From Escherichia coli (GTDB lineage: Bacteria > Pseudomonadota > Gammaproteobacteria > Enterobacterales > Enterobacteriaceae), in assembly GCF_003334315.1 (NCBI RefSeq), contig NZ_QOWR01000052.1: a DNA stretch of 33,060 bases. One strand, given 5' to 3'. Made by a program: the position numbers and the translations under genes. Below the pieces are notes generated by a model that was not told the origin of the DNA, did not search any database, and saw nothing but the letters and a program-made list of their open reading frames with translations. Shown here in pieces: positions 2,751 through 33,060 of the stretch; positions within the stretch are counted from its first letter, which is position 1, and every line of letters starts with the position of its first letter.

Positions 2751-4081
2751 CACGCCAGTTTCAGATCCCGGGTCATGTTTTCCACGTTGTTTTCGTGGAT
2801 CACCACGTTGTCTTCGATACGAATGCCGCCGAACGGTTTCAGTGCTTCAATTTTCTGCCAGTTGAAGTGTTTGCTGAACTGCCCTTCACGCCACGGCGCC
2901 AGCAGCGATTCGATGAAGTAGATACCCGGTTCGATGGTTAACACCATGCCTGGCTGGAGAATACGGGTGCAGCGCAGGTACGGATATTTTGCCGGTGCCG
3001 CGAGATGCGTACCGCTATCATCCTGCATAAAACCAGCGACATCATGCACCTGGAGGCCCAGCGGATGGCCGATACCGTGCGGCATAAACGGTCCGGTGAG
3101 ATCGTTTTCGACCATCGCTTCTTCACTCATATCGGTGATGATTTGATGTTTACGCAGCAATTTGGCGATGCGCTGATGGAACTGGATGTGGTAATCCACA
3201 TAGCTGACGCCAGCTTTCATGGTGGCGATCAGCGCCAGTTGTTCATCATTTACGTCTTTCACCAGCTGTGCGTAGTCGTTGTCGCTTTTTGCCGACCAGG
3301 TACGGGTCAGGTCAGCCGCATAGCCGTTATATTCGGCCCCGGCATCCAGCAGGAAGCTGCGCATCTCTTCCGGCGCCTGATGATCCAGTTTGGTGTAATG
3401 CAGCACCGCAGCGTGTTCGTTGAGCGCCACAATGTTGCTGTAAGGTACGTCGGTATCACGATGACCGGTCGCGGTCAGATAGGCAATATTGATATCGAAC
3501 TCGCTCATGCCAGAACGGAACGCTTCTTCTGCCGCACGATGACCGTTGACCGCCATTTTCTGCGCTTCACGCATACAGGCCAGTTCGTACTCGGTTTTGA
3601 AGGAGCGGTAGTAATGCAGGTAGTCGATCACCCCTTTCGGGTTGATGTTGCTGGCCTCAATACCCAGTTGCAGCGCACGTTCTGGCACCGGACCGATATA
3701 ACCGATATTGCCGCGCGCAGCAGGCAGCAGGCTACCAATGCCATCGGCTTTCGGCAGCGCGATCACTTCCACATCTTCAGTCCAGAAGGAGGTCGGCAGC
3801 GGTTCGACGTTGTGCCAGTAATCAACCGGCAGATAAAACCACAGTTTCGGCTTGTTCACACCATCCACCAGCAACCAGCAGTTTGGCACCTGAGTTACCG
3901 GCACCCACGCTTTGAATTGCGGGTTCACTTTAAACGGATAGGGATGATCGTCGAGAAAAACATTGAACAGCTCGCCGGAGTGAATAAGTAACGCATCCAG
4001 CTTGAAGCGCGCCAGCGCATCGCGAGTCCGTTCTTGTAAGGTAGCTATATGATTTTTATAGAGCGAGGCCAGTGATTCCAT
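2750..4081 (-). CDS. pepQ: Xaa-Pro dipeptidase (prolidase) PepQ
   Basis: 443-aa [29 protein letters not shown]... with M24 metallopeptidase-type HxxGHxxGLxxHD region; divergent from fadB. Confidence 0.92.
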
Positions 4082-7639: not shown

Positions 7640-7826
<187 letters not shown>

Positions 7827-13277: not shown

Positions 13278-15520
<2,243 letters not shown>

Positions 15521-22327: not shown

Positions 22328-23281
22328 ATGATCGAAGTAAAACACCTGAAAACGCTACAAGCGTTGCGGAACTGCGGCTCGCTCGCAGCCGCTGCGGCGA
22401 CGTTGCATCAGACGCAATCCGCCCTGTCTCACCAGTTTAGCGATCTGGAACAACGCCTTGGCTTCCGGCTATTTGTGCGTAAGAGCCAGCCGCTACGCTT
22501 TACACCGCAGGGAGAAATCCTGTTGCAACTGGCAAACCAGGTACTGCCGCAAATTAGCCAGGCCCTGCAAGCCTGCAATGAACCGCAGCAGACGCGTCTG
22601 CGCATTGCCATTGAGTGCCATAGCTGTATTCAGTGGCTGACACCCGCGTTAGAAAATTTCCATAAGAACTGGCCGCAGGTAGAGATGGATTTTAAATCGG
22701 GCGTGACATTTGACCCGCAGCCCGCCTTGCAACAGGGAGAGCTGGATCTGGTAATGACGTCCGATATTCTGCCGCGCAGTGGCCTGCATTATTCGCCGAT
22801 GTTCGACTATGAAGTGCGTCTGGTGTTAGCACCTGACCATCCACTGGCGGCGAAAACGCGAATTACACCGGAAGATCTCGCCAGCGAGACGCTATTAATT
22901 TATCCGGTGCAGCGTAGTCGACTGGATGTCTGGCGGCATTTTCTTCAGCCGGCAGGCGTCAGCCCGTCACTGAAAAGCGTCGATAACACCTTATTGTTGA
23001 TTCAGATGGTTGCCGCGCGGATGGGTATTGCCGCGCTACCGCATTGGGTAGTAGAGAGTTTTGAGCGCCAGGGTCTGGTGGTGACCAAAACCCTGGGCGA
23101 AGGCTTGTGGAGCCGACTGTACGCCGCCGTGCGCGATGGCGAGCAGCGTCAGCCAGTTACGGAAGCGTTTATTCGCTCAGCGCGCAATCACGCCTGCGAT
23201 CATCTGCCGTTTGTGAAGAGCGCGGAGCGACCCACTTACGATGCACCCACAGTGAGGCCAGGATCACCAGCGCGCCTGTAA
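22328..23281 (+). CDS. metR: LysR-family transcriptional activator MetR
   Basis: 317-aa [57 protein letters not shown]... with N-terminal HTH. Confidence 0.93.
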
Positions 23282-31856: not shown

Positions 31857-31950
31857 AAAATAAATATATTCTGAAAAAATATGCCGACTCTTGCATGAGA
31901 GTGGGCATATTGCCATGCTGACCGGAGACTCATACAAGGATGTAAAATTT

Positions 31951-32331
31951 ATGTTACGTATATTTATCCCAACATCTAACGGTAAGATTTCCAGACGTCG
32001 TTATATATTTTCATTTATTTTAATAAATTTCATTTTTGCCTTTCTTATTATCTTTTTTAACGATGGAGAAGCAGGCTTTCTTGTTATAGTCTCTACCATC
32101 GTACTCCATTATCTCGTCATCAACATGAATTGCCAGCGACTCCGTGATAGTGGTTTCATCTATATAAAAACTTATGTTTTTGGTACATTAGCAGTATATA
32201 TCATCTCTATCATCACAATGATAGCCGAAGATTTTGCCTGTTCAGGCAATGGTTCGATGATTTTTTTGATTTGTTATTTTTCCACTTTCAGTATGCTAAT
32301 GCTTGCACCTACTGATTCATCAAAACAATAG
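31951..32331 (+). CDS. yigG: small uncharacterised inner membrane protein YigG
   Basis: [67 protein letters not shown]... (126 aa from ATG 31951; in-frame alternative starts at 31891 and 31915); lies in a visibly AT-rich stretch. Start codon uncertain. Confidence 0.65.
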
Positions 32332-32344
32332 TTATGGAGTATTT

Positions 32345-32629
32345 ATGAGTAAGGAATATATGAACGATGGTTCATTAAGTGAAAAATGGAAATACCGATT
32401 TAATTTTTATGATCAACATGGTTTTCCTGGATTCTGGGGGGCAACACCAGAATATAAAGCAGCATTTAAAGCATTAAAAGTAAGACAACGCTTAACTATT
32501 CAAATGAATTTCATTGCTTTCTTCTGTTCCTGGATATATTTATTTGTCCTGGGGTTATGGAAAAAAGCAATTATAGTTCTATTACTTGGTATTCTATCTC
32601 TATTTGTGGTAATGACTCCAACTTATTGA
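32345..32629 (+). CDS. yigF: small uncharacterised membrane protein YigF; reading frame runs into the IS1 end at 32608, so the last 7 codons and the stop come from IS1
   Basis: [53 protein letters not shown]... (94 aa here). Final codons GTG GTA ATG ACT CCA ACT TAT TGA overlap the IS1 terminal inverted repeat that begins at GGT 32608. Confidence 0.6.
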
Positions 32630-33060
32630 TAGTGTTTTATGTTCAGATAATGCCCGATGACTTTGTCATGCAGCTCCACCGATTTTGAGAACGACAGCGA
32701 CTTCCGTCCCAGCCGTGCCAGGTGCTGCCTCAGATTCAGGTTATGCCGCTCAATTCGCTGCGTATATCGCTTGCTGATTACGTGCAGCTTTCCCTTCAGG
32801 CGGGATTCATACAGCGGCCAGCCATCCGTCATCCATATCACCACGTCAAAGGGTGACAGCAGGCTCATAAGACGCCCCAGCGTCGCCATAGTGCGTTCAC
32901 CGAATACGTGCGCAACAACCGTCTTCCGGAGACTGTCATACGCGTAAAACAGCCAGCGCTGGCGCGATTTAGCCCCGACATAGCCCCACTGTTCGTCCAT
33001 TTCCGCGCAGACGATGACGTCACTGCCCGGCTGTATGCGCGAGGTTACCGACTGCGGCCT
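32608..33060 (-). mobile_element. IS1 insertion sequence, partial (right-end terminal inverted repeat and insB 3' portion; continues beyond the window)
   Basis: 32608-32652 is GGTAATGACTCCAACTTATTGATAGTGTTTTATGTTCAGATAATG, the reverse complement of the IS1 right end, followed by sequence that matches IS1 insB coding sequence as I remember it. Confidence 0.92.
32623..33060 (-). CDS. insB: IS1 transposase InsB (C-terminal part; 5' end lies beyond the window)
   Basis: Minus-strand translation ...[125 protein letters not shown] with TAA stop at 32623-32625; the frame stays open upstream to the window edge. Confidence 0.9.

Follow-up and report, generated by a model that had tools for sequence, protein, structure and literature searches.

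The window analysed here is a stretch of 33,060 nucleotides of Escherichia coli DNA, at the right-hand end of which the gene yigF is interrupted by an insertion sequence. An intact yigG gene (126 aa) lies on the plus strand at positions 31951–32331; its boundaries follow the PGAP annotation of a near-identical record, and its product matches NCBIfam NF008474 with 255.6 bits (cut-off 217). It is followed at 32345–32607 (+) by the 5′ portion of yigF, which comprises nucleotides 1–263 of the native 381 at 100 % identity and ends at 32607. From 32608 to the end of the window at 33060, the minus strand carries the IRR-proximal 453 of the 768 bp of an IS1A element, identical at every position to L001 4309–4761. 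Loci from complete genomes are cited as L001 and L020 (NZ_AP021891.1, strain 2017.01.04CC), L002 (MRSN346595), L005 (TOE3), L021 (HCP6S3_I2) and L022 (ET220). Across the insertion, the gene order is rarD (+), yigG (+), the yigF 5′ portion (+), IS1 (transposase −), the yigF 3′ remnant, a hairpin, corA (−), ysgD (−) and yigE (+).

The yigF/IS1 junction

The boundary between yigF and IS1 lies between positions 32607 and 32608 (...TCTATCTCTATTTGT / GGTAATGACTCCAACTTATTGATAGTG...). The bases directly to its left read ...TCTATTTGT, of which the last eight are CTATTTGT, and the IS1 end GGTAATGACTCC begins at 32608. The initial annotation had placed the start of the IS1 terminal repeat at this base, within the yigF frame, and the sequence together with 100 % identity to IS1A from 32608 onwards bears this out. 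The right terminal inverted repeat (IRR), GGTAATGACTCCAACTTATTGAT, spans 32608–32630. According to the ORF list, the plus-strand frame runs from the ATG at 32345 to the TGA at 32627–32629, which sits within the inverted repeat; codon 88 (GTG) straddles the junction and is followed by six IS1-encoded codons and the stop. The product of this chimeric frame (32345–32629, +) is 94 aa long and consists of 88 YigF residues and the sequence VMTPTY, the 38 C-terminal native residues being absent. The lengths first reported, 94 aa here and 126 aa in reference strains, were thus both correct, since the frame stops at 32629 and intact genes encode 126 aa.

Window 32345–32607 was compared by megablast with 5,426 complete E. 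coli genomes and was identical at 263 of 263 nucleotides to the yigF gene of many of them; the matches are annotated as ‘yigF: DUF2628 domain-containing protein’. At least 80 % of this query was covered in 2,401 genomes, and matches of at least 99 % were obtained in 1,688. Identity to the reference gene stops at 32607, as expected from the initial annotation. Across the junction, window 32300–33060 is 100 % identical in 11 complete genomes, and two more carry the same junction (one at 99.6 % identity, one with 95 % query cover), which brings the total to 13 of 5,426. IS1 matches the genome collection in 75,657 places, and this exact junction with yigF recurs in independent complete assemblies; the junction is real and lies far beyond chance.

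These matches also bear on the question of whether the contig was falsely joined to, or simply ends in, a collapsed IS1 repeat. The window does end inside IS1, and an element with at least 40 matches per chromosome is a typical break point of draft assemblies. However, the identical left junction was found in 13 complete genomes that were assembled independently in different laboratories, and both junctions with a perfect 8-bp target site duplication (TSD) were present in all three of the genomes examined for them. An assembly artefact is extremely improbable.

Element and target site

In NZ_AP021891.1 the full element lies between two yigF flanks and measures 768 bp (L001 4309–5076); window 32608–33060 corresponds to its first 453 bp, with 100 % identity. 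The ends of the L001 copy are GGTAATGACTCC...GGCAGCATCACC, with 18 of the 23 terminal positions complementary between the IRR and the other end. This copy contains an InsA ORF of 91 aa and an AAAAAAC frameshift motif (A6C) at nt 307, and was named by PGAP ‘IS1-like element IS1A family transposase, programmed frameshift’. In the window itself, the C-terminal (insB′) part of the transposase is present as a 125-aa ORF at 32623–33000 (−), which matches positions 100–199 of 199 of the profile NF033558 (transpos_IS1, ‘IS1 family transposase’) with 126.2 bits, the NCBIfam cut-off being 100 bits. The transposase gene is located on the minus strand and is transcribed leftwards, toward yigF.

When the element is completed from L001, every defining feature of the IS1 family that was tested is found: a length of about 768 bp, imperfect inverted repeats of about 23 bp, an insA/insB′ frameshift, and a TSD of 8–9 bp. 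It shares with IS1A of E. coli K-12 and its relatives the length of 768 bp, the imperfect inverted repeats GGTAATGACTCC.../GGTGATGCTGCC..., insA, the A6C −1 frameshift, insB′ and an 8-bp TSD in AT-rich DNA. The element itself is no different from known IS1A; only its insertion site (yigF nt 256–263) is particular to the lineage.

To the left of IS1, yigF is matched up to nt 263, and to its right from nt 256 onwards, which means that the 8 bp CTATTTGT have been duplicated. This octamer occupies 32600–32607 in the window and is present on both sides of IS1 in L001, L005 and L022, the right copy lying beyond the end of the window; it occurs once in the empty-site loci L002 (3256–3263) and L021. 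A duplication of 8–9 bp adjoining 32608 had been proposed from the window; the 8 bp CTATTTGT were confirmed in the relatives, but the 9-mer CTATTTGTG was not, as it takes in the first G of IS1.

Close relatives and origin of the insertion

Only four single-nucleotide differences in 33,060 nt, at window positions 3860, 4660, 6901 and 12091, separate the window from positions 4463384–4496443 of NZ_AP021891.1. The window thus stems from a strain very closely related to 2017.01.04CC (Viet Nam), though not necessarily from that strain itself. MRSN346595 has an uninterrupted yigF of 381 nt that encodes 126 aa (WP_000032581.1), and the stop codon of the convergent corA gene is found 42 bp past yigF. 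This agrees with the initial annotation, according to which corA directly follows yigF in K-12, with no IS element between them. HCP6S3_I2 likewise has an empty site and an intact yigF, with a single mismatch over window 8100–32607 and a right flank that matches at all 1,512 nt compared; the near-identity of this strain indicates that the insertion is recent and lineage-specific. The 13 carriers among the 5,426 complete genomes came from humans, ducks, chickens, frogs and sediment and belong to an IS1-rich lineage, with about 40 or more IS1 matches per chromosome. The description of the insertion as strain-specific has to be widened to lineage-specific, since 13 complete genomes have it in common.

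If YigF were by nature shorter here, IS1 could also have landed just past its stop codon, and nothing would be truncated. No evidence was found in favour of this, and the initial annotation had named IS-free YigF proteins that end within a residue or two of the junction as what would speak for it. Instead, the IS-free reference yigF continues for another 118 nt (38 codons and the stop), and those exact bases directly follow IS1 and its TSD in L001, L005 and L022. Because the missing 118 nt pick up directly behind a 768-bp IS1 that has a direct repeat on either side, the insertion lies inside the gene, and the probability that it lies past the stop is negligible.

Two of the carriers differ in detail. 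TOE3 (L005 2809–3576) has the same site, the same 8-bp TSD and a near-identical 25-kb flank, yet its IS1 differs at seven positions and is named IS1B, which suggests gene conversion by another IS1 copy or a second hit at the site. In ET220 (L022 1233–3035), a descendant within the same lineage, the copy at this site is 767 bp long, one base short, and a second IS1 in direct orientation, the TSD of which (TATTTATG) overlaps the yigF start codon, leaves a 264-bp 5′ fragment of yigF bracketed by two IS1 copies.

The IS1 copy in the strain of the window might instead mark a recombination joint, formed by IS1–IS1 deletion or inversion or by an IS1-adjacent deletion. The lineage is rich in IS1, and an IS1-adjacent deletion has occurred at the same locus in strain G5. 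In that strain (L011 2506–3273), an IS1 without TSD joins codon ~30 of rarD to nt 162 of yigF; this is an IS1-adjacent deletion that took out yigG entirely, the larger part of rarD and the 5′ end of yigF. However, the complete genomes closest to the window (four SNPs in 33 kb) all have the simple insertion where they were checked, and a recombination joint is very improbable for the window.

We therefore hold with high confidence that a 768-bp IS1A element entered codon 88 of yigF by simple transposition, recently and in the ancestor of a small E. coli lineage rich in IS1. The cut at CTATTTGT (yigF nt 256–263) was staggered, with duplication of these 8 bp, and the element inserted with its right end (IRR) toward the start of yigF, an orientation that places the transposase antisense to yigF. 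The yigF frame now continues for six codons into the IRR and ends at the TGA, with loss of the last 38 residues. A simple insertion predicts the IS1 left end followed by CTATTTGTTGGTGCACTAATT at the far junction, past 33060, and the far junction in the strain of the window is presumably as in its relatives.

Consequences for YigF

Native YigF matches the Pfam family DUF2628 (PF10947) over residues 17–117 (E = 5e-10); no NCBIfam match was returned for the truncated 94-aa product in a profile search. Kyte–Doolittle analysis of YigF revealed two hydrophobic blocks, one with 19-residue window centres at ~59–63 and a long one at 69–100. The cut at residue 88 falls inside the second block, and the 38 lost residues comprise the rest of this long hydrophobic segment and the C-terminal tail. 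In comparison with yigF of K-12, the gene of a DUF2628 inner-membrane protein and the partner of yigG, the first 263 nt (88 residues) and the synteny yigI-rarD-yigG-yigF-corA are the same, whereas the C-terminal 38 residues are replaced by six encoded by IS1 and the frame of 94 aa falls short of the full-length 126-aa product. The position of yigF between yigG and the convergent corA is conserved, with the same order in L001, L002, L020 and L021. RefSeq lists the truncated gene as a pseudogene (‘missing C-terminus’) and has a separate pseudogene entry for the 3′ remnant. As judged from these features, the truncated yigF is most likely a null allele, and the 94-aa ORF should be read with caution, as the product of a pseudogene.

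The interval between rarD and corA is polymorphic. The K-12-type yigGF allele is present in only ~2,400 of the 5,426 genomes, the island being missing, substituted or diverged in more than half of them; ~565 genomes carry an allele that is only 84 % identical, an unrelated cassette replaces the island in O157:H7, O55:H7, O103 and others, and rarD almost abuts corA in ECO21, so that at least one genome has a near-complete deletion. That the majority of genomes lack or have altered it argues for its dispensability. Additional genes (YPO3983 family, DUF943, SAM hydrolase) adjoin a duplicated corA 3′ fragment in some strains. In K-12 substr. GM4792, the yigF 5′ query was matched in two pieces over 281 nt, not 263, which implies ~18 extra bases within yigF that stem from a small duplication or an assembly error.

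Transcriptional context

The initial annotation had further suggested that outward reading from IS1 might affect the genes beyond it. This found no obvious target, as the element is followed only by what is left of yigF, a hairpin terminator active in both directions by its score, and the convergent corA, which presents its 3′ end. The hairpin (25 nt, L001 5209–5233) lies between the yigF remnant and corA and scores as a terminator on both strands. There is no co-directional gene within ~1.4 kb beyond IS1, and corA is read convergently from a promoter at its far end; a read-out effect is therefore unlikely. A consensus promoter and terminator scan of L001 3500–5400 detected no outward promoter-like site at either IS1 end; the only IS1 promoter found points inward from the left (IRL) end. 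With this inward promoter and the yigF/corA hairpin as the sole yield of the scan, the idea of read-out was dropped. On the basis of the gene arrangement and the scan, a regulatory effect of IS1 on its neighbours is unlikely. Since yigF closes the yigG-yigF pair and a hairpin terminator separates it from the convergent corA, neither polar nor read-out effects would be expected. Read-through of the transposase transcript would be antisense to the yigF 5′ portion, yigG and rarD.

No structured RNA was found near the yigF/IS1 locus in an Rfam scan of the whole window. Elsewhere in the window, two known K-12 features exceeded the Rfam gathering score, namely the small RNA ‘Erse’ at 14915–15166 (−; 319.5 bits), which overlaps the 3′ part of ubiJ, and naRNA4 at 7692–7769 (−; 92.1 bits) between fadA and fre. 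In the near-identical RefSeq record, the genes metR (+) and bioP (−) converge at 23169–23281, where their annotated 3′ ends share 113 bp.

Recurrent insertion into the yigG-yigF island

The yigG-yigF island has a GC content of 31–35 %, compared with ~50 % in its flanks. In K-12, yigF and yigG have been described as a ‘promoter island’ (PMC3661553) and as a small extended protein-occupancy domain, a class linked to H-NS silencing (PMC8282354). The TSDs of IS1 are 8 or 9 bp long, the latter being commoner, and favour AT-rich DNA (PMC10359306).

Insertions in the island were surveyed in the 5,426 complete genomes by using the yigF 5′ part joined to either IS1 end as the query and counting IS1 within ~880 bp; 25 genomes were found with the orientation of the window and 15 with the opposite orientation. 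From mapped representatives of these ~40 genomes, at least 15 distinct combinations of site and orientation were counted in the 0.9-kb island (window 31857–32607 is the part present here), each with its own 8- or 9-bp TSD. Numbered from the first nucleotide of yigF, the TSDs start at −433 (upstream of yigG), at −244 and −44 (in yigG) and at −4, where the TSD overlaps the yigF start codon. Those within yigF start at 172, 229, 256 (the event of the window), 257 (opposite orientation), 260 (both orientations, that is, two events), 272, 304 and 348; those downstream of its stop start at 386 and 405. IS1 just downstream of the yigF stop was seen in five genomes, and the two loci examined (L016 and L017, with TSDs at nt 386–393 and 405–413) represent events separate from that of the window.

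Three IS1 sub-types occur in the island: IS1A, an IS1B-like form and a variant with 93–94 % identity (94.5 % in EH08-18-36 and FORC_082). The insertions in strains 2017.06.04CC, L73, MB20, MB50, EH08-18-36, FORC_082, GD33 and CP53 resemble that of the window in element family, island and TSD length (8 or 9 bp), and several lie 1–16 bp from its site; they differ from it in position, orientation and sub-type and are therefore independent events. In EH08-18-36 (L008 2814–3581) and FORC_082 (L013 1814–2581), the divergent IS1 (94.5 % identical to IS1A) has the same 9-bp target, TTGTTGGTG (yigF nt 260–268), in opposite orientations, which reflects either two separate insertions at identical bonds or an unexplained inversion.

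Five site/orientation events, including that of the window, fall within 25 bp (yigF nt 256–280). In a post-hoc scan-statistic simulation, five events in 25 bp gave P ~0.006 under a uniform null and 0.008–0.03 under AT-weighted nulls. All 15 simple insertions lie in the island, and none was seen in those stretches of rarD and corA that were surveyed, a comparison that is confounded by selection on those two genes; the hot-spot statement is drawn from this internal comparison of island and flanks only. It is conceivable, though on balance doubtful, that the ~50-bp stretch of yigF around nt 229–280, which has received IS1 in either orientation and of all three sub-types, is a genuine natural IS1 micro-hot-spot, to which local DNA structure or occupancy by H-NS or IHF would direct targeting beyond AT content and dispensability. 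A full-text literature search returned no paper on yigF together with IS1, and mentions of yigF alone were mostly incidental. The repeated hits in yigF, especially at nt 229–280, are the only modestly new point, and they fit the known target preference.

Repeated IS1 insertion into yigF of unrelated strains could also be taken as a sign that the event is adaptive or regulatory, with loss of YigF selected or with corA, yigG or rarD driven or silenced by IS1 transcription. The ends of IS1 are able to form hybrid promoters in other contexts, which counts for a regulatory role. Against it stand the scan result, with no outward promoter-like site at the ends of IS1, the hairpin terminator before corA and the location of the corA promoter at the far end of that gene. 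As to selection, 4 of the 15 events are non-coding, while 16 % of the island is non-coding DNA; disruption of reading frames is therefore not enriched, which argues for target preference and tolerance. Selection for loss of yigF found no support, as insertions into the non-coding parts of the island are not underrepresented. An AT-rich island (GC 0.35) is a known preference of IS1 (PMC10359306), and mutational bias together with dispensability is sufficient. An adaptive or regulatory role is thus very improbable. The simple transposition is probably neutral, because yigF is an accessory gene that is reported to be transcriptionally silent.

Conclusions

The initial interpretation, an IS1 insertion that truncates yigF, holds apart from small corrections. 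Neither the element nor the way in which it disrupts the gene departs from the standard; the event is already recorded in RefSeq as a pseudogene and an IS1A and is not unusual, since yigF is a recurrent IS1 target. Taken alone, it matters little, being an ordinary knock-out by IS1 of a gene that is dispensable. The insertion can serve as a marker of descent for a clade of E. coli that is rich in IS1 and comes from humans, poultry, frogs and sediment, chiefly in Asia. Should the micro-hot-spot in yigF prove true, it would provide a defined chromosomal site at which the target choice of IS1 could be studied in vivo. The pattern across the island neatly illustrates, in nature, which targets IS1 prefers and how silenced accessory islands decay.
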